This document shows positions 6,087 to 64,000 of a stretch of 64,000 nucleotides of DNA, piece by piece. Numbering within the stretch: the first letter of the stretch is position 1; the number at the start of each line of letters is the position of its first letter. The notes beneath the pieces were generated by a model. The model did not search any database. It was not told the origin of the DNA and worked only from the letters and a program-made list of their open reading frames with translations. Source of the stretch: Shigella phage pSb-1. The position numbers were made by a program, and so were the translations under genes. Location: the sequence record KF620435; one strand, given 5' to 3'.

Positions 6087-6094
6087 TTCAAACA

Positions 6095-6559: not shown

Positions 6560-6570
6560 TATGCCTTTAC

Positions 6571-8111: not shown

Positions 8112-8161
8112 AAGAACCTCTTTGTTTTTCTAGGAAACCCCTCCGAAGAGGGGGTTGTTTA

Positions 8162-9341: not shown

Positions 9342-9427
9342 GAATACGCAGTTAATGTTAGCAGGAGCATACCCACCAAAAACAGGTATTAAAGAAGTAA
9401 TGCCTGATTTAGTGGATGTTCTTTTTG

Positions 9428-37860: not shown

Positions 37861-37922
37861 TAGCCTGTTCAAATGGCCTCACTTATAATAAAGTGAGGCT
37901 ATCTTTGAAGAGGAAATAAGCT

Positions 37923-38760: not shown

Positions 38761-38762
38761 CA

Positions 38763-39206: not shown

Positions 39207-39227
39207 CCCTCTACGGAGGGTTTTTTA
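39205..39227 (+). terminator. intrinsic terminator (AACCCTC-TACG-GAGGGTT + T6)
   Basis: stem-loop and TTTTTT. Confidence 0.7.
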
Positions 39228-39239
39228 CTGGAGATTTTA

Positions 39240-39467
39240 ATGTTTTCCAAACCTACCAAAGCCCCACTGAACAAGGGGCAAGAAGCGGTTGCGAAGGAGT
39301 TCTTCGACTTCCTGCTCGACCCTAATGCTACCGAATTCAATATTAGTGGCCCAGGGGGAACTGGCAAGACATTCCTGATGTCGCACCTCATTGATGACAC
39401 TATGCCTGCATATATGGAAACTTGCTCCCTTATGGGAACCAAGCCTCTGTATAACGAAGTGTTATGA
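39240..39467 (+). CDS. Dda-like SF1 helicase, N-terminal fragment
   Basis: Walker A GPGGTGKT; motif Ia (TATTNKAA...TYHSF) and Walker B (IIFVDEASM) lie downstream in two other frames. Confidence 0.65.
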   Translation: MFSKPTKAPLNKGQEAVAKEFFDFLLDPNATEFNISGPGGTGKTFLMSHLIDDTMPAYMETCSLMGTKPLYNEVL

Positions 39468-39648
39468 CTGCGACCACGAACAAGGCTGCTGAAGTTCTGG
39501 CTCAGGCTACTGGACGCCCAACGTCTACCTATCACTCCTTCCAGGGCTGATTGTTAAGAATGACTTTAAAACTGGTGAGGCTAATGTCGTACCTTCTAAG
39601 TCATTCAATATTAAGAAGAACAAAATCATCTTCGTAGATGAAGCATCC

Positions 39649-40548
39649 ATGATTGACCGTCAGTTACTTAAGTATGCTCGTGAAGGTACTCACCAGTGCA
39701 AACTGGTATTCGTAGGTGATGCTTCTCAGCTTCTGCCTGTTAAAGAGAATAAGTCTCCAGTGTATGCAGGCAATATCCCAACACACTATCTGACTGAACA
39801 GATGCGTACCGATGCACCGGAACTTAAAGCATTGCACCAGCAATTGCGTGATACGGTAGAAGGTAAGACAGGCTTCCTGCCTATTAAATGTATTCCAGGC
39901 ATCATTGACTGGGTACAAGGAGAAGAGATGGAGAAACTGGTTCTCAGTCACTTCACTCAACCTACCAACAGCCGTATTGTTGCTTACACGAATGATCAGG
40001 TTATTAATTACAATAACTACATTCGTGAAGCTAATGGCTACGTGGGCGAGTACTCCATTGGTGAACAGTTAGTATCTAACTCTGCTGTTCGCTTGGGTGT
40101 GGAAGACCGTCTGTCTATTGAACAAGACGTAAAACTCATTGACCAGGATAGTAGTACTCGCATGATTCCAGTTACAGGTGATCTGGAACTAGAAGTTCGT
40201 GATAGTACTCTGGACCTTGGTTATGGTGGTATTGTAAGTGAAGTTCCAGTACCTACTGACCCAGAATACTTCAACCGTTTGGTTAAGTGGCTAGGTAAAG
40301 AGAAGAACTGGGAACCTTACTTCCGTCTTAAAGAAACCATCCCAGACCTACGTGCTACTCATGCATGTACTGTCCATAAATCGCAAGGCTCTACTTACGA
40401 CACAATCTTCATTGATGCAGATGACCTCTCAAGCTGTCGCCAACCAGATATGGTTGCTCGTCTGCTTTACGTCGCTGTGTCTCGTGCCCGTAAGCGAGTA
40501 GTGTTCTATGGCAATCTTGCCAGTAAGTACGGTGGTCTAACTTTCTAA
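39649..40548 (+). CDS. Dda-like SF1 helicase, C-terminal part
   Basis: VHKSQG and YVAVSRA motifs; frame open upstream to 39493. Confidence 0.7.
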   Translation: MIDRQLLKYAREGTHQCKLVFVGDASQLLPVKENKSPVYAGNIPTHYLTEQMRTDAPELKALHQQLRDTVEGKTGFLPIKCIPGIIDWVQGEEMEKLVLSHFTQPTNSRIVAYTNDQVINYNNYIREANGYVGEYSIGEQLVSNSAVRLGVEDRLSIEQDVKLIDQDSSTRMIPVTGDLELEVRDSTLDLGYGGIVSEVPVPTDPEYFNRLVKWLGKEKNWEPYFRLKETIPDLRATHACTVHKSQGSTYDTIFIDADDLSSCRQPDMVARLLYVAVSRARKRVVFYGNLASKYGGLTF

Positions 40549-40558
40549 GGGAGGATAT

Positions 40559-41089
40559 ATGCCTCAGATTGGTTCAGCGACTATTGGTCAGGTTGCCAAT
40601 AGCAGTGATATAGTCAAACACCTGTTCTTAGCAGAACTGGTTCGTCTTGATAGTGTGTTAAACGGTATCATTGATAAGAACGACCGTATCAATGGTATTG
40701 ATGTATCGGCTGGATTCCTTTATCAAGGGGAGTTCTATCAGCGTTCTAACGCTGCCAGACCTCCAACCTACGGTGAGAGATTAACACTTAACCCAGAACT
40801 ATGGCCTGCAATGGACAAGTATCTGAAAGCCTCCAGTCGTTTGATTATGGAAGTACACCTTGTGAACCAGACTGTATATCGCCTGGTTCGTGGTTGTATG
40901 TCCTATCAGGATGTACGTGATGCTTTACCTGAATGCCTGGTAGCGCAAGACCAGACCGGTAAGTACAAGGAACTGCCACGTACTCGTGAAGCAGCCTGGA
41001 CTCTTGCTGGGGATCCCATGGCAATAAAACAGTATGAGAAGATTCTTCCCTCTATTGAGTACTATGCAGCTTCTCATCTGATTTTCTAG
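40559..41089 (+). CDS. hypothetical protein
   Basis: 176-aa ORF between helicase and DNA polymerase. Confidence 0.4.
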   Translation: MPQIGSATIGQVANSSDIVKHLFLAELVRLDSVLNGIIDKNDRINGIDVSAGFLYQGEFYQRSNAARPPTYGERLTLNPELWPAMDKYLKASSRLIMEVHLVNQTVYRLVRGCMSYQDVRDALPECLVAQDQTGKYKELPRTREAAWTLAGDPMAIKQYEKILPSIEYYAASHLIF

Positions 41090-41098
41090 GGTAAAGCT

Positions 41099-43678: not shown

Positions 43679-43980
43679 CCAAAAGTACTAAAGAAACTGT
43701 AGTCAAAAAATATCATTGGATGGTAGCAGCACAAGTAGTATTCCAGCTTCCTAAAGTGGATGATGGTTCCCTGCTTACCATGAACACGATGTTGCTCACT
43801 GATGAACCTTATGTGACCTATAAAGATTTGGCCCGTGCCAATCATTCCTTGAAGATTAGTCTGGACCAGCGTTTCGATACCTCAGTTGACTTGAAAGACA
43901 TTGTTTACCTGTCCCTCAGCAACCTGGGTCTGATGTCTGAACCAGAGTTCCAGGCAAACATGATTCCTAAGGATAAATAA
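43675..43980 (+). CDS. hypothetical protein
   Basis: 101-aa ORF overlapping polymerase stop. Confidence 0.4.
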   Translation: MTKSTKETVVKKYHWMVAAQVVFQLPKVDDGSLLTMNTMLLTDEPYVTYKDLARANHSLKISLDQRFDTSVDLKDIVYLSLSNLGLMSEPEFQANMIPKDK

Positions 43981-43999
43981 TGCTAAGCTCTCCGGTGGA

Positions 44000-44263
44000 T
44001 TGAATAACTGGTATGTAGTACCAGTTAAGCACCCTCAACGGAAAGAGCAAGAGCCATATCAAGCAGAGTGTGAAGATATTATACAAGCACTAGGCATGAC
44101 CTTCGATGAAGGTTGTGCCTTTAAAGCTCTGTGGCGAAATGCTGCTGCCCGTATGGGTAATGGTAAACCTGGAAACTCTTCGGTGTACGACTCAGAGAAG
44201 ATTGTGCACTATGCCAATCGCATATTGAAAAAGGCTTATAATGAAGATAACCAACAATCATGA
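44000..44263 (+). CDS. hypothetical protein
   Basis: 87-aa ORF. Confidence 0.4.
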   Translation: MNNWYVVPVKHPQRKEQEPYQAECEDIIQALGMTFDEGCAFKALWRNAAARMGNGKPGNSSVYDSEKIVHYANRILKKAYNEDNQQS

Positions 44264-45113
44264 TGTCTCACTGGCTCTGGCTGTATGGCTATTGCATGAC
44301 GAATATGACTATGTAGATAACCCTAAGTACCTGTCTGTTACTACATTGCTTAAGCCCATTAAGCAAATCGTCATGAAGCATCGTGTAGATTTAAGTGACC
44401 AGTCAATTGATGTTATGGATTTCGTCTCCACATCAATGGGTACTGGTTTACATGATTCTATCGAGAAAGCCTGGAAGCTAGGTCATAAGACTGCATTGAA
44501 GAAGTTGGGGTATCCTCAACGAGTAATTGATGCAGTAGTCATTAACCCAACCGAAGCAGACTTTGATACTAACCCTGACCTTATCCCAATCTACATTGAA
44601 CAGCGTGGAACCAGGATAGTTAAGGGTTGGACTATCGGTGGTAAGTTCGACATCGTAACAGAAGGTCTGCTGCAGGACTTTAAGTCTACCTCCACCTATT
44701 CCTGGGTTGCTGGTTCCCGTGATGATGAACACAAGATGCAAGGTAGCTTGTACCGTTGGATTCACAACGACATCATTACTGAGGATGTAATTCGTATTAA
44801 CTACATCTTCACTGACTTCATGAAGCATATGGCTAATAGCAATCCGAACTATCCTGCTAATCGTATTATGCATAAGGATATTCCGTTGCTATCTATCGAG
44901 AAGACTGAACGTTGGGTAGAAGAGAAGATTCACCTCATTGAGAAGTACTGGAATGCACCTGAAGAGAAAATTCCTGAATGTACTGACGAGGAGTTGTGGC
45001 GAACAGAGCCACAGTTCAAGTACTTCTCTGATGCTTCTAAGGTAGATGTACCTGGAGCCAGAAGTACCAAAAACTTTGATGATATGGCATCTGCTCGTAT
45101 CTTCATGGACTGA
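44241..45113 (+). CDS. PD-(D/E)xK family nuclease (putative exonuclease)
   Basis: GKFDIVTEGLLQDFKST resembles D...(D/E)xK core. Confidence 0.4.
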   Translation: MKITNNHDVSLALAVWLLHDEYDYVDNPKYLSVTTLLKPIKQIVMKHRVDLSDQSIDVMDFVSTSMGTGLHDSIEKAWKLGHKTALKKLGYPQRVIDAVVINPTEADFDTNPDLIPIYIEQRGTRIVKGWTIGGKFDIVTEGLLQDFKSTSTYSWVAGSRDDEHKMQGSLYRWIHNDIITEDVIRINYIFTDFMKHMANSNPNYPANRIMHKDIPLLSIEKTERWVEEKIHLIEKYWNAPEEKIPECTDEELWRTEPQFKYFSDASKVDVPGARSTKNFDDMASARIFMD

Positions 45114-45161
45114 AAAAGGTGGCAAGGGTGCTATCAAGGTCGTGGAGGGGCAGGTTAAGCG

Positions 45162-47372
45162 TTGTCTATACTGCCCTGTCGCATCCATTTGCAAACAAAG
45201 AGAGAGATATTTTCCATCATGAGTATTGACCTGACCGGAGTCACTCACCACCCTGCAATCGAAGAAATTGTAGACGTGCTGTGTAACAAGACACAAAACA
45301 ACGACAGAGGATTCTTCCGTGTCGAAGTAGCCTACTTCCTGGCTAAAATGGCATCCTGCATGGGTGCAACCATTGTCACTAAAGACCGTGGTGACTTACC
45401 AGTCAACATTTACGCTATGGCATTAGCAACGTCTGGCTTCGGTAAAGGTCACTCGGTAAATATTATTGAAGATGGGTTCATGACTGGCTTCCGTAAACGT
45501 TTTATGGAAGACACCATGCCCGTCATTGCAAATGACCGTCTATGGAAAATTGCTAACGAACGTGCTGCTCGACAAGGTACAGACCAGAATGATGAATTTG
45601 ATAAAGTTGAAGCAGAGTATAAGCGTGCCGGGGCATATCCGTTTACGTTTGACTCTGGTACTCCACCAGCAGTTAAACAACTACGGCATAAGCTGTTAAT
45701 GGCTGGGTGTGGTTCAATCAACCTACAGATTGATGAAATTGGTTCGAACCTGTTGGCTAACACAGATGTATTAACCCTGTTCCTGGAGCTATATGACCAG
45801 GGTAAGGTTAAGCAGAAGTTAACCAAGAACACTGCTGAAAGCGTTCGTGGTGAAGAACTGGATGGTAAGACCCCAGCTAACCTGTTGCTGTTTGGTACAC
45901 CAAGTAAGTTGTTAGATGGTGGTCAGACTGAAGACCAGTTCTATGACTTTCTGGATACAGGGTATGCACGTCGCTGTCTGTTTGCCATTGGGCATTTAGA
46001 CAAACGAGCACATGCAACAATGTCTCCAGAAGAAATCTACCGTAACCTGATTAAGCAGGATAACGTACAGTCTCTTGGCAAGTGGGCTAATCACTTCCAT
46101 AGCCTGGCTGACCCAAACCTGTTTGGCTTTAAGATGGTTGTAGAAGATGCTGTGGGTATTGCTCTGATTACTTACAAAATTGATTGTGAGAAACAAGCAG
46201 AAGCTATGGCTGACCACGAAGAAATTCGTAAGGCTGAAATCTCCCACCGTTACTTCAAAGCTCTTAAGCTGGCAGGTGCATTAGCGTTTGTTGACCAGAG
46301 TTCATTCATTGAGATGTCCCATCTTAAACAAGCAATCCTGCTTGTAGAGGAATCCGGGGCAGCATTCCAGGGTATTCTCAATCGTGAGAAAGCCTATGTG
46401 AAGCTGGCTAAGTACATTGCCTCTGTAGGTAAAGAAGTAACTCATGCTGACTTACTGGAGTCATTGCCGTTCTATAAGAGTGGCAATGCAGCTCGTAATG
46501 AGATGATGACTCTTGCTACAGCATGGGGATATAAACAGCACATCATCATTAAGAAAACCTTCAATGAAGGTATTGAGTTCTTCCGTGGTGAAACTCTGAA
46601 AGAAACTGACATCAATGAGATGATAGTGGCATATAGTGATAGCTTTGCTTATGACTACATTGGTGAACGTGTACCGTTCGACCAGTTGCATGTATTAACC
46701 CAAGCTCCCGGTATGCACTGGGTGAACCATCACATGAAGAATGGGCATCGTTCTGAAGAGAACGTTATTCCAGGATTTAACATGATTGTTATTGACTGTG
46801 ATGGTGGAGTACCACTGCATACGTGCCATGAACTAATGAAGGAATATAAGTTCATGACCTATACCACTAAACGTCATTCTGATGAAGAGAACCGATTCCG
46901 ACTGATTATTCCAATGAACTATGAGTTACACCTCGATACTGAGGAATACAAAGAGTTCATGAATAACGTCATGTCCTGGCTACCGTTCGAAACGGATGAA
47001 TCTGCTAACCAGCGAGCCAAGAAATGGATGTCCTGCGAGACTGGTTCTTATCATTACAATCTTGAAGCAAATCTGTTGGACGTGCGTGACTTTATTCCTC
47101 GTACTAGTAAGAACGAGCAGTTCCAGAACCAGATGAAGGAAGTACAGTCGTTGGATAATCTGGAGCGTTGGTTCGCTAGTCGTATTGCTACCGGTAATCG
47201 TAATAATCAAATGATTAAGTACGCACTGGCATTGGTTGACAGTGGTTGGGATTTTGCCCAAGTACAGCAAGCCGTCCACTCATTCAATAAGAAACTGGCT
47301 AATCCATTACCAGATGATGAATTGAATGCAACCGTAATGGTCACCGTGGCTAAACGCTTCGCTGGCAAGTAA
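45162..47372 (+). CDS. putative DNA primase (N4 gp43-like) with P-loop-like N-terminal region
   Basis: 736-aa ORF between nuclease and RecA-like ATPase; call largely by synteny. Confidence 0.45.
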   Translation: MSILPCRIHLQTKREIFSIMSIDLTGVTHHPAIEEIVDVLCNKTQNNDRGFFRVEVAYFLAKMASCMGATIVTKDRGDLPVNIYAMALATSGFGKGHSVNIIEDGFMTGFRKRFMEDTMPVIANDRLWKIANERAARQGTDQNDEFDKVEAEYKRAGAYPFTFDSGTPPAVKQLRHKLLMAGCGSINLQIDEIGSNLLANTDVLTLFLELYDQGKVKQKLTKNTAESVRGEELDGKTPANLLLFGTPSKLLDGGQTEDQFYDFLDTGYARRCLFAIGHLDKRAHATMSPEEIYRNLIKQDNVQSLGKWANHFHSLADPNLFGFKMVVEDAVGIALITYKIDCEKQAEAMADHEEIRKAEISHRYFKALKLAGALAFVDQSSFIEMSHLKQAILLVEESGAAFQGILNREKAYVKLAKYIASVGKEVTHADLLESLPFYKSGNAARNEMMTLATAWGYKQHIIIKKTFNEGIEFFRGETLKETDINEMIVAYSDSFAYDYIGERVPFDQLHVLTQAPGMHWVNHHMKNGHRSEENVIPGFNMIVIDCDGGVPLHTCHELMKEYKFMTYTTKRHSDEENRFRLIIPMNYELHLDTEEYKEFMNNVMSWLPFETDESANQRAKKWMSCETGSYHYNLEANLLDVRDFIPRTSKNEQFQNQMKEVQSLDNLERWFASRIATGNRNNQMIKYALALVDSGWDFAQVQQAVHSFNKKLANPLPDDELNATVMVTVAKRFAGK

Positions 47373-47428
47373 GCAAACAGGAGTCTTTCTTTGGTTTGAA
47401 GGACTCCTAAATTAAATGAGGAAAAATA

Positions 47429-48181
47429 ATGTCCGAAGTAATTCCCAATGATATGAACACTCAGCTAATCCTGATTGCAGGATTCTCAGCGAGTGGTAAA
47501 TCAGCATCACTGCGTAATATCAGGAACCAGGAACGCTGGCTCTATCTGAATACTGAAGCAGGTAAACGTCTGCCTTTCCGTAATAAATTCAATACCTACA
47601 ACATTGAAGACCCATACCAAATCTGGGAAGCATTTGATGTTGCATCTCCTGGTGGAGAAATGGCAGACGATGTTGATGGTATCATCATTGACTCAGCAAC
47701 CTTCATGATGGACATGCTGGAATCCCAGTACGTATTGCCATCTGCAAACACGCAAAAGGCGTGGGGTGATTTTGCACAGTTCTTTAAGATACTGCTGCAA
47801 CAAAAAGTAGTTAAGTTTGGTAAGCCAGTAATTATTACTGCTCATGCTAAAGACGAACTGGATGAAGCTGCTGGTGTAATGAAAACATTCATCCCAGTGA
47901 AAGGTTCTCTGAAGAATAACGGGCTTGAAGCCTACTTCTCTACCGTGGTTTACGCAGAGCGTGTAGACATTAAAGAACTGGAGAAGTATGGGAACAAGAT
48001 GTTAGAAATTACGGAAGAAGAACGTGACTTAGGGTATAAGCACGTATTCCAGACCCGTCCTACCAAGAAGTCGGTTGGTAAACGACTTCGTTCCCCAATG
48101 GGTATGTTTGATAAGTCCGAGACTTACATTGATAACGATGCCCAGAAACTCTTAGACCATCTGGCTGAATACTACGCTTAA
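47429..48181 (+). CDS. RecA-like P-loop ATPase (AAA_24/Sak4-like recombination protein)
   Basis: Walker A AGFSASGKSAS, Walker B GIIIDSATF. Confidence 0.5.
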   Translation: MSEVIPNDMNTQLILIAGFSASGKSASLRNIRNQERWLYLNTEAGKRLPFRNKFNTYNIEDPYQIWEAFDVASPGGEMADDVDGIIIDSATFMMDMLESQYVLPSANTQKAWGDFAQFFKILLQQKVVKFGKPVIITAHAKDELDEAAGVMKTFIPVKGSLKNNGLEAYFSTVVYAERVDIKELEKYGNKMLEITEEERDLGYKHVFQTRPTKKSVGKRLRSPMGMFDKSETYIDNDAQKLLDHLAEYYA

Positions 48182-48220
48182 GCGTTTGCCTGGTTGTTAA
48201 TCACTTATTAGGAAAATCAT

Positions 48221-48541
48221 ATGTCATTGTTCAGTAATCTGAAAGAAAAAACCAAAAACGTTGAAGCTGTTAAAGACTCCCTGGGTGGTGGTGGCTTCGG
48301 TGCAAAAGAATCCGATATCTACACCGGTACTGTAAAAGTAGCTTACGTAGGTAAAGCTGACTCTGGTGCAGACTGGATGCAGTTAATCATTGAAGACCTG
48401 AAAAACTCAGATGGCGTACCTGCCGGTGAGTTCCGTGCTCAGGTGTACTTCACTTCTGGTAATGCTAAAGGCAATAAGCGACTTACGAGAAGAACGGTAA
48501 AGAGTACTTCCTGCCTGGCTACACTGTCATTAATGACATGA
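48221..48541 (+). CDS. single-stranded DNA-binding protein, N-terminal fragment (tentative)
   Basis: position after recombination ATPase; joins next ORF with 1-nt offset. Confidence 0.35.
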   Translation: MSLFSNLKEKTKNVEAVKDSLGGGGFGAKESDIYTGTVKVAYVGKADSGADWMQLIIEDLKNSDGVPAGEFRAQVYFTSGNAKGNKRLTRRTVKSTSCLATLSLMT

Positions 48542-50821: not shown

Positions 50822-50891
50822 GTCGGGGTAGCACGTAGGCATGTGCAGCTGGTCGCTACTTCTCTCGCTGGTTCGAATCCAGCCCCTGACC
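50822..50891 (+). tRNA. tRNA-like gene (anticodon arm not canonically foldable as given)
   Basis: acceptor GTCGGGG/CCCTGAC, D arm GCAC/GTGC, T arm GCTGG-TTCGAAT-CCAGC; anticodon region 2-3 nt too short. Confidence 0.55.
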
Positions 50892-51182
50892 TACTGACAT
50901 CCTATCAATGAGTACATTAGGCTAACGTGCGGAGGTTTACACTGTAGCCGGTGTAGGTAGAGAAGACGGCAGGGTAGCTACCTGTGCTTAGTGTACTCTT
51001 TGATAGGTTGTACTATCAAAGTCCAGACGATATCTGAGTGACTATAAAAACAGATGGAGCCAGGTGGAATCCCTGGCAATTAATTCAAAGTAGCATTGCA
51101 CTAATCCATCTCGGAATTCAAAGGCCAACCATGGAGCAGTGCTACTTTGAATTAGAAGAATTATGACGGGTCTGGTGAAGTA

Positions 51183-52474: not shown

Positions 52475-52510
52475 ATCATTTACAGCACATCAAGTATGAG
52501 TATTAGTAGA

Positions 52511-52536
52511 AGCCCCTCTAATGAGGGGCTTTTTCA
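52511..52536 (+). terminator. terminator at convergence of plus and minus blocks (AGCCCCTC-TAAT-GAGGGGCT + T-tract)
   Basis: 8-bp GC-rich stem followed by TTTTTCATTT. Confidence 0.65.
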
Positions 52537-52563
52537 TTTAGTTAGTGAGGTTGAGCCACGGGT

Positions 52564-55500
52564 TCAGGGTATGGGCACGTAAGCCTTGTCCGAAACCGAA
52601 TGAGTAACCGAGGTTGCCTGTGCAGCAATACTAAAGATGTTGTCCTGAATAGGCAAACCAACGTTACCAAACATGGTAGGAGTTGGAGCCAACATAGCCA
52701 TAGCAGCATGTACTGGGTTATTACGAATCATGGACACTGCAACTTTTGCAGAACGAATCTTAAAGTTGTAGAACCACATTAAACCAACACTTTCCATATA
52801 CCCACGGAATCGACCAGGTAAACGGTCATAGTTAATGAACTCTTCCGTTACACGTCCCAGTGCTTCTTCACGAGTCTTACCTTTACGCTGGGTCAATTCA
52901 TCATAGATGATTGCTTTAGCGATAAAGTCAGAGTACTCAACCGTTTTCTGGATACCCTGGAATAGAGCAGTATCCTTAGTGAAAAGTGCATAACGACCTG
53001 CGTTACGTACAGACTTAGGCAGCTTATCAGCTAGCTTATCCATGTATTCGTGAAGTTTACCTTCAGTAATCAGGATGTCATCACGACCAATACCAGCATC
53101 TGCAATTGAAGAGAACTCACCAGCTTCTAACAGAGGCCAGATACTCAAACGCTTATGGCTATCCGTAATGGACTGAATCTCAGCCTTAAGTTTACGAATC
53201 TGGTTCGGGTTAGTAGCTGCACGTAATTCTGCTTCTGCATCTACCTGACGAAGTCGAGATTTCAGGTACTGGTTAATCTCAGCAGTCTTCTGTGGAATGC
53301 TCTTAGCAATGTTCTTAACAGGTACACCACGAGCAACCATCTGGTAAAGGTTAGCCAAGAAGTTAACAGCAGGTACAATCACTGACTTAACTACAATCAG
53401 GGTCTTAGCTTCTTTAACTAAGTTTTGAACCAGATTCTCACCACCCATTACATACTTATAGGCACGGTTGCCAAATACACCCAACATAGCTTTCTTGAAG
53501 GTATCCAGTGTTTCTGGGGACCAACGAGAATTACCAGACCAGGCATCCCCAACAGAAGCTGCACGATAACCCAGAGCATCATTCAGCATGTCACGACGTA
53601 CCCACAACTCACCTGGGCCAAACAGACTTTCTGCTTTCTGACGTGTTTCACTGTTCATCAGCTTAAGAGCATCAGCAGTCACTGGGTCCAGTTTGGAACC
53701 AAGAAGGTTCACGTACTGGGACTTATTAGAAGCAGACATCTTAATGTCGTTCTCATACATGCTATACAGGTTCTCAATTAGCATATCGTTGAAACGCTGA
53801 GCCTTAGCCTCTTCTACCTGACGACCACGCCATACACCGATTGCACGGGCAAGATGGTTTTCACCCTCGATGTGCTTCAGCATATTAGGGTCAATGGATT
53901 GCTCGTAAGCAACCACATTACCATTGGCATCATATACAGGCAGGAGTGGTTCATTACCACGTTCACCACGAGCCAGTGCTTTAGTGATACGGTCTACGGA
54001 AGGCTTGTCAGTGATACGACCAGCTACCATGGTTCCCATAGTAAAGCCTGTACCAAGGTCTACACCACCAGCAGTATTGCGAACGTTCTGTAAGATACCT
54101 TGGGAGAACGGAGCCTGTGCCTGTACTGGTGCAAAGTAGTAGCTACGTGCCGGTCCACGATTAGCAGAGCTACCTTGATAAGTGCCCAGTCGTACATAGG
54201 ATTTTTCAATCAAATCAGCAAACTGACTATCTTCAGCAACAATCAGGTTAACACCTTGTTTGTTCTCACCGGGAATATACCCTTTGTACTGGTTCAGGGT
54301 TGCACGGCTATCAGACTTGGCTTTAGCCATTTCATCTTTACGCTGACCAACCAGGTAAGAAGTAGCAAAGTCCATGCCTTCAATTTCTGTCTGAGCCAGT
54401 GAAGATAACATCTCACGGTCAGTCTTATTCATTGCTTCCAGTGCATACAGGGTAATGAGTTTATCCAGTTGAGCTACGTCTACAGTAGAACGTGTAGTCT
54501 TACGTTCACCCAGCAAGCGAGAAATTGCAGTAGCATTACGCAGCAGGTTATTACCGACTGTACCGTTAATCATGTACTGAGCCAGTTGCTTAGATTTACG
54601 GCTAATCAGGGGCCAGTTACGCCCTGCTTGTTTCTGCAAATCTGCTTCCAGTTTATTAACTTCACGGTCAACAATCTTCTGGTCAGTCAGCAAGTCACGG
54701 ATTTCAGCCAGAGACATAGTATCACGCAGGACAGCTAAGTCAGTTTTACCCATGCCAGTATGCATTGCTTTCCACTCTTCATTAGTCAGTTTACGACTGA
54801 ACTTAGATGCGATAGTGGTAGGCAAGTGTTCACGGAACTGTTGACGGTCAGCTTGTACCTGTGCACGAACTGCCTTAATCAAATCGTATACAGAAGCATT
54901 GCTCTTAGTACGTCCAATTATGTCATTAACCAGGTCATGGAAAGGTTGCCATACTTTACCCTGGTTCATTGCAGCCATAACACCTTCCGCTACGATTGAA
55001 CCATTCTTCTCTGTAGCAATAGCAGCTATCAGTTGTGCAGCATGAGCAGCACCTTTAACCAACGGGTTTTTGGTATTAGCTGCAACTTCACGAGCACCTT
55101 CCAATGCACGGGTAGACAGTACATCAATAGAGTCCACCAGATACTGGTTAGCACGGTCAATAGCATTACCGGTAGGAGTAGCAACGGAATCATAGAAGGA
55201 CTCTGCATTAAGACTGGTCTGCATGATTGTCTGAGCCAGTGCATCCATACCTTCCTGTACGTTAGTGGCTTTAGTATCACCTGCTACACGAGCATTCAGA
55301 CTAGCCATTGCAGCAGTACCGATGTTAGTCAGCATTGCATCAACGGTATTACCTGATTTCTTATCTGCTTTCATAACAGGAATGTCAGCCAGTACTTTAC
55401 GTACCTCTTCACTTACCATTGCCAGGCCAACAAAGGTAGGCAGTAAGGAAGAACGACCCTGTGCATCAAACTCAATGTTGTTAGCACCCATGATGGTATC

Positions 55501-56250
55501 GAACCTCTGCTGTGCATAATAACGGTCAGCAGGGTTAGTACTATCTGGGTCAGACATGAACGCTTCAACAGTCAGGTTCTTAGTAACATGTGTGTAGTAT
55601 TCCTGTGCACGAGCCAAAGCAGCTGGATTAATAGCAGCCTCGGTAGCCAGTGCAGCAACAATATTAGTGAAGAGACGTTGTTCCTGCATATTCATAGTGA
55701 AACCATGAGCCTGAACATCACGAGTTACTTTAGTTGCATTCACTACTGCATCAGAGAACTTACCTTTACGAATTACTTGCTGTACTGGCTCTGAACCAAT
55801 GTAGTCAGTAATCAGCTTATCGAAGGTCTTACCTAGCTCTTCCAGACGGGTATTGTCACCGTATGCTTTGTTATGGAACAGAGTAGTGTCTTTGGCTACA
55901 GCAGCAGTAGGAGCTTGTCCACGCATAACTACAGCAGAGTTAAACAGTAAGCCAGAGAACATATCATCTGCATTAGCAGGAGCTTTCTTACGTCCAAATA
56001 TCAGACGTTTGATTGCTTCATATACAGCCTGAACCATAGTTTTAAGTGCAGTGGTTTTCTTCTGCTTACTAATAAGTTCACGGTTAGTTAAGCCCCAAGC
56101 CATGTACTCATTCAGTGCAGCAGCTTTAGCCATTGCTGGTTCAATGAAGCCATTAGACAAGTGACCATTAATGGTATTCAGTGCATCAGCATATGCTTCA
56201 CGTACTGCCGGAGATTCATCCTTAACATCCAGAGAACGGAACTGGTTCAT
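52564..56250 (-). CDS. virion RNA polymerase (vRNAP), C-terminal region
   Basis: 1228-aa ORF whose start overlaps the stop of the polymerase-core ORF (TGATG) with 1-nt frame offset. Confidence 0.6.
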   Translation of the reverse strand: MNQFRSLDVKDESPAVREAYADALNTINGHLSNGFIEPAMAKAAALNEYMAWGLTNRELISKQKKTTALKTMVQAVYEAIKRLIFGRKKAPANADDMFSGLLFNSAVVMRGQAPTAAVAKDTTLFHNKAYGDNTRLEELGKTFDKLITDYIGSEPVQQVIRKGKFSDAVVNATKVTRDVQAHGFTMNMQEQRLFTNIVAALATEAAINPAALARAQEYYTHVTKNLTVEAFMSDPDSTNPADRYYAQQRFDTIMGANNIEFDAQGRSSLLPTFVGLAMVSEEVRKVLADIPVMKADKKSGNTVDAMLTNIGTAAMASLNARVAGDTKATNVQEGMDALAQTIMQTSLNAESFYDSVATPTGNAIDRANQYLVDSIDVLSTRALEGAREVAANTKNPLVKGAAHAAQLIAAIATEKNGSIVAEGVMAAMNQGKVWQPFHDLVNDIIGRTKSNASVYDLIKAVRAQVQADRQQFREHLPTTIASKFSRKLTNEEWKAMHTGMGKTDLAVLRDTMSLAEIRDLLTDQKIVDREVNKLEADLQKQAGRNWPLISRKSKQLAQYMINGTVGNNLLRNATAISRLLGERKTTRSTVDVAQLDKLITLYALEAMNKTDREMLSSLAQTEIEGMDFATSYLVGQRKDEMAKAKSDSRATLNQYKGYIPGENKQGVNLIVAEDSQFADLIEKSYVRLGTYQGSSANRGPARSYYFAPVQAQAPFSQGILQNVRNTAGGVDLGTGFTMGTMVAGRITDKPSVDRITKALARGERGNEPLLPVYDANGNVVAYEQSIDPNMLKHIEGENHLARAIGVWRGRQVEEAKAQRFNDMLIENLYSMYENDIKMSASNKSQYVNLLGSKLDPVTADALKLMNSETRQKAESLFGPGELWVRRDMLNDALGYRAASVGDAWSGNSRWSPETLDTFKKAMLGVFGNRAYKYVMGGENLVQNLVKEAKTLIVVKSVIVPAVNFLANLYQMVARGVPVKNIAKSIPQKTAEINQYLKSRLRQVDAEAELRAATNPNQIRKLKAEIQSITDSHKRLSIWPLLEAGEFSSIADAGIGRDDILITEGKLHEYMDKLADKLPKSVRNAGRYALFTKDTALFQGIQKTVEYSDFIAKAIIYDELTQRKGKTREEALGRVTEEFINYDRLPGRFRGYMESVGLMWFYNFKIRSAKVAVSMIRNNPVHAAMAMLAPTPTMFGNVGLPIQDNIFSIAAQATSVTHSVSDKAYVPIP

Positions 56251-59200
56251 CAGGTCTTCAATATTCTGAACGGCTTCATTAGGAGTGCTTCATAATGAGC
56301 CAGTACAGATTCAAAGGTAGAAGCATGTACCAATTCATGAACCAGAGTCTCTAAGGAAGGGGTAACTAAGTAGATGGTCTTATCTTCAAAGTTAGTCCAG
56401 CCATATGCATTACCAGCTTCAGCAGCTTCAATATCTTCCGGTGCTGGACGAGTAATATTCTTCTCAATAGCGTAGGCATCCAGTTGAGAAGGTGTACCGT
56501 AAACAACCTTGTAGTCTTTAGCAGCAAGGGATTTCTGTATTTCTTTCAATACTGCTTGCTGTTCAGGAGACATCTCTTTAGCCAGCTTAGTAATAGCAGT
56601 ATTAGATAGCAGACGTACACCGGACTTCAGTACACGACCTACTTGTTCCATTGCTGGTACTTCTGCCACCGGCACTTCTTTCACTGGTTCTGCTTTAACT
56701 GATTCCTCTTTCGTACCTCGTACTGCATCACGACGTTTGTTTAATTCAGCATCAAACAGTTCGTTCAGCTTAGCTACTTGCTGGTCTACAGTCAGACCTT
56801 CAAGAGAGATTTTACCGTTGTTCACATAAGGAGCACCAACAGCAGCCATCTGGTCAACTGTGACTTGTACCTGGTCCATTACCTTGTGACGAATATCCAC
56901 ACCCAGAGCAATGTTACGCAGGTTACGCTCAATCAATGCAATACCAGAATCTTTAATCATAGAAATTTTATAATCTCTATCACCATCTACTCTGGCAATA
57001 TGAGTACGTTGCTCAAAGTCTAAAGCAGACTTCGCAATAGCATCTATTGCTGAATCGGACAACTTATTTAAATCAACATTCTTAGCAAACTTAGAAAAAG
57101 ACTCATATACATTCTTGATAGGGTTGCCCTGCCAGGAAGTATATACAGCCTCGTTAGCTTTACGGCTTGCATCAGTAATGTCATTAATACCAATGTTCAT
57201 ACCATCAAAGATTTTAAGGGTATTCTTTGGAGCACCTTTCATAGTAGAAAGAGTCTGCATCATCATGCCATCACCAGTACCGATGGTCATAAATGGAATA
57301 CCTGCAACCCCTGCCTGTGAAGGAGCATAGATGCTCATTGGCACACGCATACGGTCATCTAAGTTGGTAGCCAGTACTTGGTTAGCAACATCAGTGTTCT
57401 CACTGCCAGCAATGTAGAAAGTCTGTGAACCAGTCTCAATCATTGGAGCCAGTGGAGATAAGCTATTCTGGATTTCATTCAGTTCTTTCTGTGTTAAGAA
57501 ATCACCTTTCTTCCATGTTGGGTCTTTTTCTTTTTCTGCCAGTTTAGCCTGTACAGCCTGTTGGAACATATCCTGCAATACCAGCGACTGAATCTGAGTA
57601 GCCTTCTGTAAGTTTTCAGTAGAGTGCATCAACCCTTCACCAACAGTAAATCGGATACCTTGTCTCATTGGCTCAACGAAGAAATGAAGCATATTCTCTT
57701 GTAAGTTCTTAAGAGCATCACCAGATATGGTAAACTCCTGAGGATCTAACTTACCAGTCAGAACACCATCTACTTCCTTAATGAATAACTTACCTTTACG
57801 CTTAGCTGGAATATTACCAGTCAATGCTTTCATAGAAGTAAGGAAGGTATCCAGCATAGCCTGAGCATCAGCTTCAGAAGCAGCCTCCTTACCAAACATA
57901 GCCATAGCTGGGGAAATGTTAGGGTCAACAGCACGGGCTTTCAGAACGTCGCTTAAGCGTTCATAGATGGTATCAGTAATTGCACTTACCATTTTGCTAG
58001 CAATACCACGAGCACCAGAACCATAGATGGTAATGGTAAGTGGGTTTTTAGCGATACCACGTTTCAGGTCCAGAGTACCATCTTCATTCAGGTTAAAATC
58101 TTTGATGAACAAATCCATTAACTTCTGGAGATGGTTCATCTGGTTTATAACAGGAATATTTTTACTATAAGCATTACGTAGTTCATTCAGATAGAATTGC
58201 AGACTATTGGTAGATGCTTCATACAGGTCAACACTGTCATCCTGTGTATGATGCTCGTTCATAGTCTTACCAGCTTTACCGAAGAACAAACCACCTTTAG
58301 CAGTATTCTTAATCCAGTTAGGAGTGAACTTACCACCAGTCATTAATACCATTGCGTTGATTGGCCCGTTGGTTACACCATCGGCTTCAACGTACAGTGG
58401 AGTATTAAAGTTGGCACGATCATCACTGTTAAGGTAACGGGCATATTCCATAAGAGCCATGAGAGCTACGAATGATTTATCATTCCCCAGAGATGTTCTC
58501 AGGATATCCACTGCATCAGTAGGTAAGTAGCCAGACTTATCAAACTCAACCATCATATCTACAGCAGGTTTCAGCTTACCCTCCAGAGCTTTGGTAAGTT
58601 CTTCTGACATAGCTTCACGGGTCATTTTATGTACTTTGATACCCAATGCCTGAGCCAGTCCAAGCTGGAAGCCAGAGAAATCTTCATTGTTCTGGTTCGA
58701 TAAATCCAGAGTAGCTTTAGTAGGTAAGATAGCCTCACGAACCAGCTTAGCTGATTGAGGGTTATATTTACCTAACATCTGCATACGACCAACACGGGTC
58801 ATATTGTATGCATAGTGAATAGGTACAGAAGAAATGTCTTCACTCTGTGCTCTTACCTGCTCAATAACAGAGAACAGTTGGTTGTAAGAATCCTCTACTG
58901 AACGATTCTTACCTTCCAGGGATTTAGCATGGTTCTTATTAAGTAAATCCTTATCCAGAGTACCTGCACCCATCAGTTCGAGGATACGGTCTTTACCTAA
59001 CGCCTCATAGAACTGAACCATTGGGGTATGCACAAAGAACTCTGTAGCCTGTTCTGCTTTAAGAGCAGCTTTTTGTTCTGGGGTATTACGGACAGCAGGG
59101 TTACGTAACTGAGTATGAGCTACAGGAGGAATATCATCACCGAGATACAGTTTCTCTACTGGTTCTACAAGAACAGCTTCCTCGATAGCAGTAGGGAATT

Positions 59201-60611
59201 TGTTAATGGCATCATTATCATCTAACTTCTCAATGGTATACAGACCAACAGTCTTGTTAGATTCTGGATCAATCTCAGAAACATCAAGCAAAGTTTCTTT
59301 AACTTCACCCATTTCAATGAGAGAAGACAGAATTTCTGTAGCCATTGCCATAGGGATACCCTTGGTATAACCCAATGGTGCATCAGCATTACGATTAAGC
59401 CCCCAATAAGATTCAATCTTTTGAGCCAGAGAGTTAGTAGCCTCTACTAAGGTTTGAGCATTATCAAACTCTGCTAGGATACCTTCTGGTAACAAGGAAG
59501 CATTTACACCAGTAATTGCAGCCACATCCTGCATGTCTTTAATGGCAGCATTCTGTGTAGCAGTCAGTCGCCATTGCAAACCAGCGAGTACAGCAGTCTC
59601 TAATAACTGGTCATTGAACTTAAAGGTATCACCGTCTTTCTCAACGATATTCAGCAGTTTGCCTCCCACCCAACGGTTAGCCTCAGTACCTTCTGCAAAA
59701 CGTTTACCAACATCCTTATTAGCAAGGAACTTAGCCAGACGGTCAGACAAAGTAGTCTTCAGAGTTTCACCAAACTCAAATAAGTCCTGGTAACGCTTAA
59801 TCACATCACTTGTGAGAGCGTTATTTTCTTTTTGAGTAAATGCTTCAAAGCGAGCAGCAGAAGACAGTGCTTTCTTAACATCAGTCAAAGGAGACTCAGA
59901 ACCAATGGTACGAGACTTAGGTTCTTCTGGTAGAGAAAATGCTTTAAGGAACTGGTTCGGAGTCTTTTCATTGTTATAGACAGGGAACACTGCTTCCATT
60001 CCCGATAGAGGTTTGCCACCAACGGTATAGTCTGCTTTCAGTTGAGCCAGTGATACTTCTTCTTTCTCAACGTTATTGGTATTAAGCCCAGATGTATCTA
60101 CACCAATCTGAATCAGTGCATTGTTTGCTTCTACGAATGATTGAACAGTATTGAATTGTTCAGCAGTTAGCTTCTGATTATCAAACAATTGCAGAGATAC
60201 GAACGGTTGCTCACTACCTTTGTAGAAAGTAGAACGTACAGCACCAGTATCCAGAGACATGTCACGATAACCATCATGACCAAATACATCAGACAGGCTA
60301 ATGTGGTCACCATTGGAACCAACAACAGTACCATCAGCAAAGAGCCAAGGACTCTCTTTACGGTCACCATATTTATTAAGAGTATCTTGGGAAATAGTAT
60401 TCTCTCCCACATAAGCATCTTTTTCCGATTCAGTAGACTGTTCAACGGTAACCTGTTTTTCAGACTGGTTCTCAGGCTCTTTTACAGGCTGTGGTTTAGA
60501 CTCTTTAATAGTAGGTTCTGTTTTAACAGCTTCACTAACAGAGGGTTTAGTCTGTACAGTAGGGGTAACTGGTTCCTGTTTCGTAACAGGAGTTTCATCA
60601 ACCTGATTCAC
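56250..60611 (-). CDS. virion RNA polymerase (N4 gp50-like), catalytic core
   Basis: T7-like single-subunit RNAP motifs: TRVGR (R609), VEADGVTNGPINAM (D744), RGIAKNPLTITIYGSG (K855, Y863), KIFDGMNIG (D1136). Confidence 0.85.
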   Translation of the reverse strand: MNQVDETPVTKQEPVTPTVQTKPSVSEAVKTEPTIKESKPQPVKEPENQSEKQVTVEQSTESEKDAYVGENTISQDTLNKYGDRKESPWLFADGTVVGSNGDHISLSDVFGHDGYRDMSLDTGAVRSTFYKGSEQPFVSLQLFDNQKLTAEQFNTVQSFVEANNALIQIGVDTSGLNTNNVEKEEVSLAQLKADYTVGGKPLSGMEAVFPVYNNEKTPNQFLKAFSLPEEPKSRTIGSESPLTDVKKALSSAARFEAFTQKENNALTSDVIKRYQDLFEFGETLKTTLSDRLAKFLANKDVGKRFAEGTEANRWVGGKLLNIVEKDGDTFKFNDQLLETAVLAGLQWRLTATQNAAIKDMQDVAAITGVNASLLPEGILAEFDNAQTLVEATNSLAQKIESYWGLNRNADAPLGYTKGIPMAMATEILSSLIEMGEVKETLLDVSEIDPESNKTVGLYTIEKLDDNDAINKFPTAIEEAVLVEPVEKLYLGDDIPPVAHTQLRNPAVRNTPEQKAALKAEQATEFFVHTPMVQFYEALGKDRILELMGAGTLDKDLLNKNHAKSLEGKNRSVEDSYNQLFSVIEQVRAQSEDISSVPIHYAYNMTRVGRMQMLGKYNPQSAKLVREAILPTKATLDLSNQNNEDFSGFQLGLAQALGIKVHKMTREAMSEELTKALEGKLKPAVDMMVEFDKSGYLPTDAVDILRTSLGNDKSFVALMALMEYARYLNSDDRANFNTPLYVEADGVTNGPINAMVLMTGGKFTPNWIKNTAKGGLFFGKAGKTMNEHHTQDDSVDLYEASTNSLQFYLNELRNAYSKNIPVINQMNHLQKLMDLFIKDFNLNEDGTLDLKRGIAKNPLTITIYGSGARGIASKMVSAITDTIYERLSDVLKARAVDPNISPAMAMFGKEAASEADAQAMLDTFLTSMKALTGNIPAKRKGKLFIKEVDGVLTGKLDPQEFTISGDALKNLQENMLHFFVEPMRQGIRFTVGEGLMHSTENLQKATQIQSLVLQDMFQQAVQAKLAEKEKDPTWKKGDFLTQKELNEIQNSLSPLAPMIETGSQTFYIAGSENTDVANQVLATNLDDRMRVPMSIYAPSQAGVAGIPFMTIGTGDGMMMQTLSTMKGAPKNTLKIFDGMNIGINDITDASRKANEAVYTSWQGNPIKNVYESFSKFAKNVDLNKLSDSAIDAIAKSALDFEQRTHIARVDGDRDYKISMIKDSGIALIERNLRNIALGVDIRHKVMDQVQVTVDQMAAVGAPYVNNGKISLEGLTVDQQVAKLNELFDAELNKRRDAVRGTKEESVKAEPVKEVPVAEVPAMEQVGRVLKSGVRLLSNTAITKLAKEMSPEQQAVLKEIQKSLAAKDYKVVYGTPSQLDAYAIEKNITRPAPEDIEAAEAGNAYGWTNFEDKTIYLVTPSLETLVHELVHASTFESVLAHYEALLMKPFRILKT

Positions 60612-60670
60612 TGGTTCATTGGTCTGTTGGGATTGAGCAGCATCAAGATTGCCCTGACGGAACTCTTTAA

Positions 60671-63370
60671 CTACCTGGCAGCAGGCTTGTCCAGACGTGA
60701 ATCCAATGGGGTAACTTTCACATGAGAAACATTAAGCTCCGGGTAAGCCGTAGCAAGTGCGTTAGCAATATCAGCTACGGTCTTGGCTTCCAGTCCTACT
60801 TGCTGGGCAAACTTAACCGACTTGGTATCATACGGATTGACACCGAGGCCAGTACGACTACGTACCCATTCACGCGAAGGAGTAAGAGCCTGATAATGGA
60901 CAGACTTATTCTTATCCGCATTCCCAGAAATCAAATGCTCATTCAACGCTCCGACCTTATTCTGCATGTGCTGGGCGAACTTCATAAAGTCGTCGAGATA
61001 AGCGGAAGCCAGGTCGAAGTTACCAGAGTTGTACGCAGAACGAATGCGTTTAGCATGTTGCAACGCAGAGTACTGGCCTTCATTAGAACGAGATTCGTCG
61101 GTTTTAATCTGTTTACTAACAATGTCCTGAGGACGTAAGCCTAGTTCTTCTGCTTTAGCATCAAATTCTCGTGCTCCTTGCAATAGAGCAGCAGCAGATT
61201 GCAGGGCAGCACGCTGACGATTCCCCAGTGTAATCTTACCTTCACTTGCATGTTTCAGAACCATGTTCACTGAATCTGCATCCAGTACTTCTGGAGACAT
61301 ATCAGCAGCCATAGCAATGTTGTTTGCCTGGGCTTGGTTAGCTTCTTCAGTAGCTTTCAATTTACCTGCTTCAGCCTGTTCCTGAATCATGGAATGGATG
61401 GCACGGAATGCACGAAGTACCTTCGGTGTATTCTGAACGTTAGCCATCAGGCCAGAGAACTGGTCTACGATTGCAGCAGCAGGAGAGCCTTGTTCCAGAT
61501 TAGCCAATGCACCCGGGTCACGGTTGATGAAGCTATCCATAGACATGATATTGTCATACATCTGGATTGCAGCTTCCATTTGAACGTTAGGGTCTTCAGC
61601 AGTATTAACCAAGTCAGCCATCTTCTGAATAGCTTCAACACGGTTAGTGGAACCAGAAACAGCTTCACGGATTACTGGGCTAGCTTGTTCCAGTTCTACT
61701 GGATCAAACTTCATTACCTGAGTTAGGTCAGCAGCATACTGAGTAGCAGCAGCTTTCTCTTCTGGAGAAATGTCCATTGCATCTACTGCTTCCTGAACAG
61801 TTGCTTGGGCCTGCTCTGCCTGAGCAGTAGCTTCCTGTGCAGCAGCATTAACCGTAGCATCAGATACAGGGGATGCTTGTTCATTACGCTTAGCAACTTC
61901 TTCCCCACGTTGAACCAGAATGTTAGTAATAGGAGAAGCTGCTTTTGCTAGTGCTTTACCAGCCAGAGAAGCACCAGCCAGGGTAGTACGTACAGCAGGA
62001 CCAACGGCAGCACCAGCAGCTTTAACAGTTGCACCAGGAGCTTGAGCAACTCCAGCAGAACCGAAGCCATACAATGCACCAAGCCCAGTTTGTTCACCCA
62101 CACCTTTAAGCAGATCACGTTTAGCATCTACATTACCCTGAATTGCCTTGTTCTGTGCAAGCTGGCTAGTACCAGACTGGATACCTTCTTCTACGGTTTC
62201 ACGAAGCATGTTAGAACCAGCACCAGCCAGTGAACCTACCTTAAGTGGGTTAAGTTCAAACTTAGATACCAGTGGACCAGTAAGAGCAGCAACTGGAGCA
62301 GTTAAGCCAGCAGCAGTGATACCTGTTTCAGATGCAGTCTGACGACGTGCTTCTTCAGGAGATAAACCATCTTTAATATGCTGTTGGTATACAGGAGATT
62401 TAGCAGCTAGTTCACTGAATGGCATTTCCATAATTTCATTGGCAGTCTGTTGGTATGCACCACCAGCTTCCATACCACCGATTGCTATAGCAGGAGCAGC
62501 AACACGACCAGCAGACTGTGCAATACGTGCAGGACGTGAACCTAACTCAGCAGCTAGGGTAATACCCTTAACAGCTTTATCCCCACCTACCATTACTTTA
62601 CCAAGTGCAGATACACCACGGATAAGTGGACCACCAGTAAACAGGGAACCAACACCTTCAGCCAGACCATCTGTAGCAGCCATACCATTGGACAAAGTGT
62701 TAGCAACAGAATCATAAGCATCACGACCAATACGAGATAAGGAAGCAACGAGTTCACTTTCTCCTTTATCAATATCCTGCTTATACTGTTTCTCATTTTC
62801 CTGTGCAGATATTACGTTCTGGTTCTGTACTACATTACGTCGTGCATTAAGTGCATCAGATTGTAAGTTGTGTACACCTTTGTTCAACCAATCAAGACCG
62901 GAAGCAATGGATGCCCCGGCATTATCATTGACCAAGCCTGTGCCAAGAGCAGCAATGCCCCCAAGGGTATTAGCAACACCAAGACCAACACCAGAAAGGG
63001 TATCACCAAGTGCTTCACCATATGTACGACTCTTAGTTAAATCACGACGAACAGCATTAGCTGCATTGACACGAGCATTGAGGATATCCATCCCTTGCTC
63101 ATTGCCATATTTGTTTATGATTTCAAGAGGAGAGGCATTAGTAAAATCTGCCTGAATAGAACCTGGGTCAAATGCACCAGCACCTAAATCACCGGCACGG
63201 CCTGCCTGTAATTGGTAGGCGTTCTGTGGGGTTAGTTGGAAAGGGCTTTGCCCTTGTTCAGCTTGTTTCCGAGAGGTTGCAGTAGAGACATCGACTTGCT
63301 TAGCAGTAGTGATGCTGTCTGCGAAACCTGCCAGACGGTCAAATGTTGACATAGCATGATTCCTGTTCAA
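60671..63370 (-). CDS. virion RNA polymerase, N-terminal region (frame-broken from core)
   Basis: 899-aa Gly/Ala-rich ORF ending in TAG; core ORF frame is open upstream past this stop with 1-nt offset. Confidence 0.5.
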   Translation of the reverse strand: MNRNHAMSTFDRLAGFADSITTAKQVDVSTATSRKQAEQGQSPFQLTPQNAYQLQAGRAGDLGAGAFDPGSIQADFTNASPLEIINKYGNEQGMDILNARVNAANAVRRDLTKSRTYGEALGDTLSGVGLGVANTLGGIAALGTGLVNDNAGASIASGLDWLNKGVHNLQSDALNARRNVVQNQNVISAQENEKQYKQDIDKGESELVASLSRIGRDAYDSVANTLSNGMAATDGLAEGVGSLFTGGPLIRGVSALGKVMVGGDKAVKGITLAAELGSRPARIAQSAGRVAAPAIAIGGMEAGGAYQQTANEIMEMPFSELAAKSPVYQQHIKDGLSPEEARRQTASETGITAAGLTAPVAALTGPLVSKFELNPLKVGSLAGAGSNMLRETVEEGIQSGTSQLAQNKAIQGNVDAKRDLLKGVGEQTGLGALYGFGSAGVAQAPGATVKAAGAAVGPAVRTTLAGASLAGKALAKAASPITNILVQRGEEVAKRNEQASPVSDATVNAAAQEATAQAEQAQATVQEAVDAMDISPEEKAAATQYAADLTQVMKFDPVELEQASPVIREAVSGSTNRVEAIQKMADLVNTAEDPNVQMEAAIQMYDNIMSMDSFINRDPGALANLEQGSPAAAIVDQFSGLMANVQNTPKVLRAFRAIHSMIQEQAEAGKLKATEEANQAQANNIAMAADMSPEVLDADSVNMVLKHASEGKITLGNRQRAALQSAAALLQGAREFDAKAEELGLRPQDIVSKQIKTDESRSNEGQYSALQHAKRIRSAYNSGNFDLASAYLDDFMKFAQHMQNKVGALNEHLISGNADKNKSVHYQALTPSREWVRSRTGLGVNPYDTKSVKFAQQVGLEAKTVADIANALATAYPELNVSHVKVTPLDSRLDKPAAR

Positions 63371-63420
63371 ACTTATATCGTATAAGAAGATTCACTGTAC
63401 AGTAAGTGAATGTAAGAGAA

Positions 63421-63438
63421 AAGCCCCGGATGGGGCTT
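63421..63438 (-). terminator. hairpin with downstream T-rich tract on minus strand
   Basis: AAGCCCC-GGAT-GGGGCTT between 63456-63929 gene and vRNAP start. Confidence 0.45.
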
Positions 63439-63455
63439 TATTAGTATGTAAGATT

Positions 63456-63929
63456 TTATCGAGGTTGCATATAGGGAGGTAAACCCTCTGCTAATTTTCG
63501 ATAACGTTTAGCTCGTTCTTCATCTTCACGACTACGCTCACGCTCTACTGAAGCATTAGAACGGAAGTTCTGTGGAACCAGATTTCCCTGGTTAGCTACC
63601 ACAGTATTAACAGCAGCATCCAGTGCAGCACGTGCTCTTACTAACTCAGCCTCACGAGCAGGGATAGTAGCAGCAAGTCCACTTTGCCCAGCAGCTACGC
63701 GACGACGAGTATCAGCAAGCAAGGCTTCTGCTTGGTTTACCTGGTTCTGAGCATTTTCAATATTGCCCTGTACCTGAGTAAGAACATTATCACGAGCAGT
63801 AGCTTCAATGCCTTCTCCTCGTCGTACTGAACGTGCTAGTTCTCTGGCAACGGTATCATCAATACGAATACCACCACCACCTTCATTGGAGATGAATGGG
63901 TTAAGTGCATCAAGTGCTCGACTAATCAT
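63456..63929 (-). CDS. hypothetical virion/late protein upstream of vRNAP
   Basis: 157-aa ORF, Arg/Ala/Glu-rich. Confidence 0.4.
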   Translation of the reverse strand: MISRALDALNPFISNEGGGGIRIDDTVARELARSVRRGEGIEATARDNVLTQVQGNIENAQNQVNQAEALLADTRRRVAAGQSGLAATIPAREAELVRARAALDAAVNTVVANQGNLVPQNFRSNASVERERSREDEERAKRYRKLAEGLPPYMQPR

Positions 63930-64000
63930 ACCTTCCGGTACGTTGGTGGTAGACTGCTTAAGGATCTCGGCAGCTACAGCTGGAGACTGTCCTGATTCCT

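Follow-up and report, generated by a model that had tools for sequence, protein, structure and literature searches.

The virion RNA polymerase (vRNAP) of N4-like phages is packaged in the virion, ejected, and transcribes the early genes from hairpin promoters. The closest described proteins are the gp50 proteins of the Gamaleyavirus phages St11Ph5, vB_EcoP-ZQ2 (ZQ2), EC1-UPM and G7C and, in another genus of the same subfamily (Enquatrovirinae), gp50 of phage N4, with structures for the protein of 3500 aa (PDB 9pnr and 11gp) and for its mini-vRNAP (PDB 2po4, 3c2p and 3q0a). In the cryo-EM structure, N4 vRNAP is organised into an N-terminal domain (NTD, residues 1-906), a low-complexity linker (907-1006), the RNAP domain (1007-2101), a second linker (2102-2123) and a C-terminal domain (CTD) extending to residue 3500 (PMC13434306).

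We analysed a stretch of 64,000 nucleotides from Shigella phage pSb-1 (sequence record KF620435), hereafter called the window. An earlier note on this sequence had recognised an N4-type vRNAP apparently divided among three ORFs, and had proposed that it was either a single gene carrying two indels or a genuinely tripartite enzyme. Our analysis indicates that the tripartite appearance is very probably an artefact of sequencing and that the locus holds one ordinary vRNAP gene of a G7C-like coliphage.

Relatives of the window

The region was compared by megablast with 50,697 phage records, of which 83 matched; all were N4-like coliphages or phages akin to them, and Gamaleyavirus phages gave the best matches. 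The window belongs to this genus (Schitoviridae) and comes from a G7C-like coliphage with about 94% DNA identity to St11Ph5, ZQ2 and EC1-UPM. Over the aligned vRNAP gene, taken as a whole, identity was 94.7% with St11Ph5, 94.0% with ZQ2, 93.6% with EC1-UPM and 87.4% with G7C.

The annotation tables of eight relatives were read (St11Ph5, ZQ2, EC1-UPM, G7C, CU10EC, PW8, nithesis and HK2) and in all eight the vRNAP is a single uninterrupted CDS of 10.4-11.2 kb. Likewise, one large annotated feature lies under the match in 30 of 30 records among the matches listed. As with the Gamaleyavirus gp50 genes, a gp51-like structural gene is found upstream of the vRNAP locus: positions 52507-64000 of the window align with St11Ph5 37074-48540, which comprises gp50 and the start of gp51, and synteny with the St11Ph5 genome extends over the rest of the window. 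Ordinary substitutions and the three missing bases are all that sets the locus apart from these genes; G7C has, compared with the window, an extra insert of 450 nt in the linker region.

Gene extent and coding pieces

The ORF listing contains the three minus-strand ORFs at the coordinates given in the earlier note, 60671..63370, 56250..60611 and 52564..56250. When they were searched with phmmer against the full-length N4 vRNAP chains of the PDB, all three matched with E = 0, in order, over N4 residues 1-3475. ORF1 (60671..63370, minus strand, 899 aa from a TTG codon) corresponds to the NTD, its residues 1-892 matching N4 gp50 1-897. The vRNAP start is not this TTG at 63370 but the ATG at 63352, which is preceded by AGGA 9 nt upstream and is common to all relatives compared; counted from there, ORF1 encodes 893 aa. 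ORF2 (56250..60611, minus strand, 1453 aa from an internal GTG) holds both the linker and the RNAP domain and extends some 125 residues into the CTD, with residues 1-64 matching N4 gp50 920-990 and residues 196-1445 matching 1000-2248 (phmmer, PDB chains). In this frame, similarity to St11Ph5 gp50 begins at 60710, upstream of the GTG. ORF3 (52564..56250, minus strand, 1228 aa from an internal ATG) covers most of the CTD and matches N4 gp50 2252-3475. Its ATG is a conserved internal Met (EDLMNQF) in all relatives aligned there, and its frame stays open, with conservation, from 56286 onwards. A further piece, at 52538..52618 on the minus strand and in a frame different from that of ORF3, carries the 26 conserved codons with which the gene ends, followed by its true stop; St11Ph5 gp50 3570-3595 matches window positions 52618-52541 with 96% identity (tblastn).

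The whole of St11Ph5 gp50 (3595 aa) could be placed on the window by tblastn, residues 1-3595 being covered by four collinear pieces of 95-98% amino-acid identity. Identity stays within this range on either side of every break in the vRNAP and does not drop past a break, and six-frame translation across the junctions shows that coding carries on in an adjacent frame at each of them. With one N inserted per deletion site (see below), the gene reads through as a single frame of 3605 aa without any further stop, the same length as ZQ2 gp50. The restored gene, an orthologue of N4 gp50, extends over 52538..63352 on the minus strand (3605 codons and a stop). The size of about 3580 aa suggested earlier is to be corrected to 3605 aa, the restored length.

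The alignment to N4 gp50 and to other Schitoviridae vRNAPs that the earlier note had proposed as a check gave a collinear match over all three domains. With respect to N4 gp50, the protein is about 100 residues longer, chiefly in the variable low-complexity linker. Judged on its sequence, the locus is the vRNAP gene of an N4-like (Schitoviridae) phage, a kind already known, and shares with such genes the catalytic motifs, the three collinear domains and the position next to a gp51-like gene. A single giant uninterrupted ORF is absent from the sequence as given, and present once the three single bases, found in every relative compared, are restored.

Polymerase domain and catalytic residues

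The T7-like single-subunit RNAP domain, equivalent to the N4 mini-vRNAP, lies at 56721..60026 on the minus strand, where ORF2 residues 202-1297 match 3q0a, 3c2p and 2po4 with E = 0. All five catalytic residues that the earlier note had listed, with the spacing of the N4 mini-vRNAP, align one-to-one to the solved N4 vRNAP chains. On the minus strand, the codon of R609, in the T/DxxGR motif (TRVGR), is at 58785..58787 and corresponds to N4 gp50 residue 1421; the codon of D744, the aspartate of motif A (YVEADG), is at 58380..58382 and corresponds to residue 1556; motif B (AKNPLTITIY), from K855 to Y863, is encoded at 58023..58049, these two residues corresponding to 1667 and 1675; and the codon of D1136, the aspartate of motif C (KIFDGMN), is at 57204..57206 and corresponds to residue 1948. 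Since the N4 mini-vRNAP begins at gp50 residue 998, these positions are equivalent to mini-vRNAP R424, D559, K670, Y678 and D951, respectively. Together with the collinear domains, they bear out the identification of the locus as an N4-type vRNAP.

Three single-base deletions in the vRNAP gene

The vRNAP gene was aligned with four relatives using MAFFT, and more relatives and IMG/VR contigs were added later for the counts at individual sites. The alignment with the four relatives contains exactly three 1-nt gaps, all of them deletions in the window compared with 4 of 4 relatives. Other length differences are few and in frame (15, 18, 21 or 450 nt).

At site 1 (60677..60679, minus strand), relatives read GCTGCCCAGG and the window reads GCTGCCAGG, corresponding to C3 reduced to C2 on the coding strand. 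The deletion brings in a TAG stop at 60671-60673, and the extra base is found in 13 of 13 relatives (MAFFT, blastn). At site 2 (56289, minus strand), relatives have GAAGGT or GAGGGT and the window GAAGC, with one G missing; the deletion lies 37 nt upstream of the end of ORF2 and leads to its TGA stop at 56250-56252. The extra base is present in 11 of 11 relatives. At site 3 (52619, minus strand), relatives read CACAGGGC or CACAAGGC and the window CACAGGC, which puts the tail out of frame and results in the premature stop of ORF3 at 52564 (extra base in 8 of 8 relatives). All three deletions fall in short G/C runs and are unique to the pSb-1 sequence. Intact junction 1 was recovered in 5 IMG/VR contigs; no copy of deleted junctions 1 and 2 was found in the IMG/VR scan and none of deleted junction 1 in the JGI metagenomes scan.

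The earlier note had described the two junctions between its ORFs as 1-nt frame offsets. Both are, the second being caused by the deletion at 56289 rather than by an event at 56250-56252. Its proposal of a single gene with two indels agrees with our analysis as to the single gene but not as to the count, as there are three single-base deletions, the one near 52619 having been missed.

Frame breaks across the window

The whole window was aligned to the complete St11Ph5 genome and isolated indels in well-conserved context were counted. This comparison yielded 27 isolated frame-changing indels. Of these, 18 fall within CDSs of St11Ph5, and checking each site individually confirmed 17 of the 18. 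The 17 confirmed 1-nt breaks disrupt 13 conserved genes, including the vRNAP with its three. Those outside the vRNAP are located at window positions 260, 11293, 13058, 16851, 17781, 23659, 28489, 28550, 32046, 39461, 39547, 43982, 45109 and 48479, and the 12 other broken genes are gp57, the gp67 tail protein, the terminase large subunit, gp1, RNAP1 subunit A, RNAP2 subunit A, gp25 (two breaks), thymidylate synthase, the DNA helicase (two breaks), gp41, gp42 and the single-stranded DNA-binding protein (SSB). Thirteen of these breaks are deletions, 12 of them in G/C runs; at 45109, one nt is inserted. ORFs called at these genes in the pSb-1 sequence are not to be relied upon.

Every one of the 20 isolated single-base deletions is located in a homopolymer, and 18 are in G/C runs of 2-5 nt, whereas G/C runs hold 16.6% of the bases (binomial p = 1.3e-12). 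The possibility that errors at Dcm sites (CCWGG) caused the deletions was rejected, only 3 of the 20 being at CCWGG. From the rate of breaks elsewhere in the window, 3.6 would be expected in the 10.8 kb of the vRNAP gene, to be compared with the 3 observed; the vRNAP is split because it is the largest target for breaks occurring across the window. As a control, ZQ2 was compared with St11Ph5: none of the 17 sites was gapped, and a single isolated frame-changing indel within CDSs was found over the ZQ2 genome, against 18 in the window. After the breaks, amino-acid identity is 95-100% in every shifted frame (tblastn), and no nonsense substitution was detected at the broken genes by tblastn against the St11Ph5 proteins.

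Other features of the window

The window is circularly permuted with respect to St11Ph5, window position 16574 corresponding to St11Ph5 position 1. The pSb-1 record therefore does not begin at the physical end of the genome, as is the convention for the reference phages. Two ORFs on the plus strand encode HNH homing endonucleases within stretches without a St11Ph5 alignment, one at 26331-26978 (NUMOD4, HNH_3 and AP2) and one at 38236-38760 (HNH_3). Both are probably insertions of mobile DNA that differ from one Gamaleyavirus to another; the HNH genes of ZQ2 are at other positions than those of the window. The tail-fibre/tailspike module at 5396-9944 is essentially unalignable to St11Ph5, with only one island of 100 nt matching, and is probably a swapped host-range module. 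Within it, the ORF at 6571-7638 (minus strand) has a sub-threshold match to a NosD/beta-helix-like Pfam family.

A tRNA-Ala(cgc) is called by ARAGORN in St11Ph5 (34352-34423) and not at the equivalent window positions 50822-50893, where two adjacent substitutions (AA to CT) are observed together with a 1-nt deletion 15 nt upstream. In ZQ2, the region of RNAP2 (gp16), at L008 30607-32168 (ZQ2 record 70607-72168), is annotated as three CDSs, namely RNA polymerase, hypothetical protein and RNA polymerase, which hints at either an insertion or a fault of annotation or sequence in ZQ2 as well.

Search for stand-alone N-terminal domains

A large protein database was searched with ORF1 for proteins consisting of a stand-alone NTD and three matches were obtained. 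One is cut by the end of its contig and was discarded, as was a second, on a 2.2-kb contig, which is probably also cut by the contig end. The third comes from L019 (ENA ERZ28618834, scaffold_286, 41.7 kb), a metagenomic Gamaleyavirus in which the vRNAP is called as two proteins of 955 aa and 2608 aa. At L019 12866-12868, an in-frame TAA lies within the low-complexity linker between the NTD and the RNAP domain, where four close relatives have GAA. This single substitution, at another position than the breaks of the window, does not represent the same phenomenon, and this match was rejected as well. The other called genes of L019 have normal lengths (over 22.9 kb of the scaffold), and the sequence of the stop was not found in IMG/VR. 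The stop may stem from an error, represent variation within the population, or mark a split that the flexible linker tolerates. Unconfirmed and unrelated to the breaks of the window, it is the sole hint of a linker that may tolerate being interrupted.

Origin of the breaks

In the reading that we consider very probable, under-calling of one base at each of three short G or C runs would have split one ORF of about 3605 codons, so that the apparent three ORFs would really be four coding pieces, and these under-calls would belong to a pattern of errors, of base-calling or of assembly, affecting the entire window. We infer a technical rather than a mutational cause from the pattern of the lesions. 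This pattern resembles the homopolymer indel errors of phage assemblies, which are isolated single-base deletions in runs, occur at a uniform rate and break conserved ORFs; its marked bias towards G/C runs of 2-5 nt, as against A/T runs, would not be expected of every platform. The deletions might instead be real and the genome defective or decaying; the sequence would then represent, for example, a non-infectious variant, a degraded copy or the consensus of a population carrying mutations, and the vRNAP would be a pseudogene. The lesions are indeed present in the sequence as given, and a bias towards deletions is also typical of gene decay. But decay in general does not leave lesions concentrated in G/C runs, which are a signature of base-calling, and the conservation of every shifted frame together with the lack of nonsense substitutions at the broken genes does not fit with it either. 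Moreover, because phages of the N4-like group are strictly lytic, there is no known reservoir in which a genome could persist once its genes for terminase, helicase, SSB and vRNAP are broken. We regard such a defective genome as very improbable. A phage could not propagate with these four genes frame-shifted. Systematic under-calling in G/C runs is the simplest reading.

The breaks might also reflect a functional split, with separate N-terminal, polymerase and C-terminal polypeptides, or with pieces joined by -1 ribosomal frameshifting. ORF2 does hold the entire polymerase domain with all catalytic residues, the domains of N4 vRNAP are loosely joined by flexible linkers (PMC13434306), and the ORF2 stop overlaps the ORF3 ATG (TGATG) in a manner resembling translational coupling. 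Two observations count against an artefact: break 1, at about N4 residue 898, is close to the natural NTD-linker boundary, where a split would be tolerable in principle, and in L019, the related metagenomic contig, the same linker is interrupted by an in-frame stop that arose independently. Break 2, however, at about N4 residue 2250, falls some 125 residues inside the folded CTD and not in the 2102-2123 linker (PMC13434306), and break 3 substitutes an out-of-frame tail for the 26 conserved residues at the C-terminus. The breaks are shared by none of the 13, 11 and 8 relatives compared at sites 1, 2 and 3, respectively, and these have no frame change that could be conserved. The earliest start codon available to ORF2 in its frame is a GTG, 66 nt beyond the break, and no Shine-Dalgarno sequence precedes it; conserved coding extends upstream of the putative starts of both downstream ORFs, and the ATG of ORF3 is an internal Met in relatives. 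The sites (GCTGCCAGGTAG, TATGAAGCACTCC and GCACAGGCAAC) display no X XXY YYZ heptamer and no run longer than 2 nt. Programmed frameshifting and transcriptional slippage were rejected on these grounds, there being no slippery heptamer and only runs of at most 2 nt at the junctions. A functional split would further require the terminase, the helicase, the SSB and others to function while split. We thus hold it to be very improbable, and the genuinely tripartite vRNAP envisaged in the earlier note is not supported: its deletions are unique among the relatives compared, 12 other conserved genes of the window, some of which are essential, are broken by G/C-run deletions of this kind, ORF2 has no ribosome-binding site and break 2 is inside the CTD. 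In a full-text literature search on the vRNAP of N4-like phages and Schitoviridae, no title or abstract had a split vRNAP as its subject, and where hits were read, the word split had other meanings.

Implications

By homology to N4 gp50, the vRNAP of pSb-1 would be packaged in the capsid, ejected into the cell and would transcribe the early genes. This genome sequence very probably contains, every 3-4 kb or so, a single-base error that breaks a frame, and the ORF calls made on it, such as the three vRNAP fragments and the split terminase, helicase, SSB and thymidylate synthase, are unfit as evidence of unusual gene architecture. We judge it extremely improbable that the deletions are real in an infectious phage, with the vRNAP made as three polypeptides or joined by unconventional recoding. 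Were this true, a giant ejected polymerase would need not be a single chain, and a tripartite vRNAP would bear on how an enzyme of 3500 residues is packaged and threaded through the tail.
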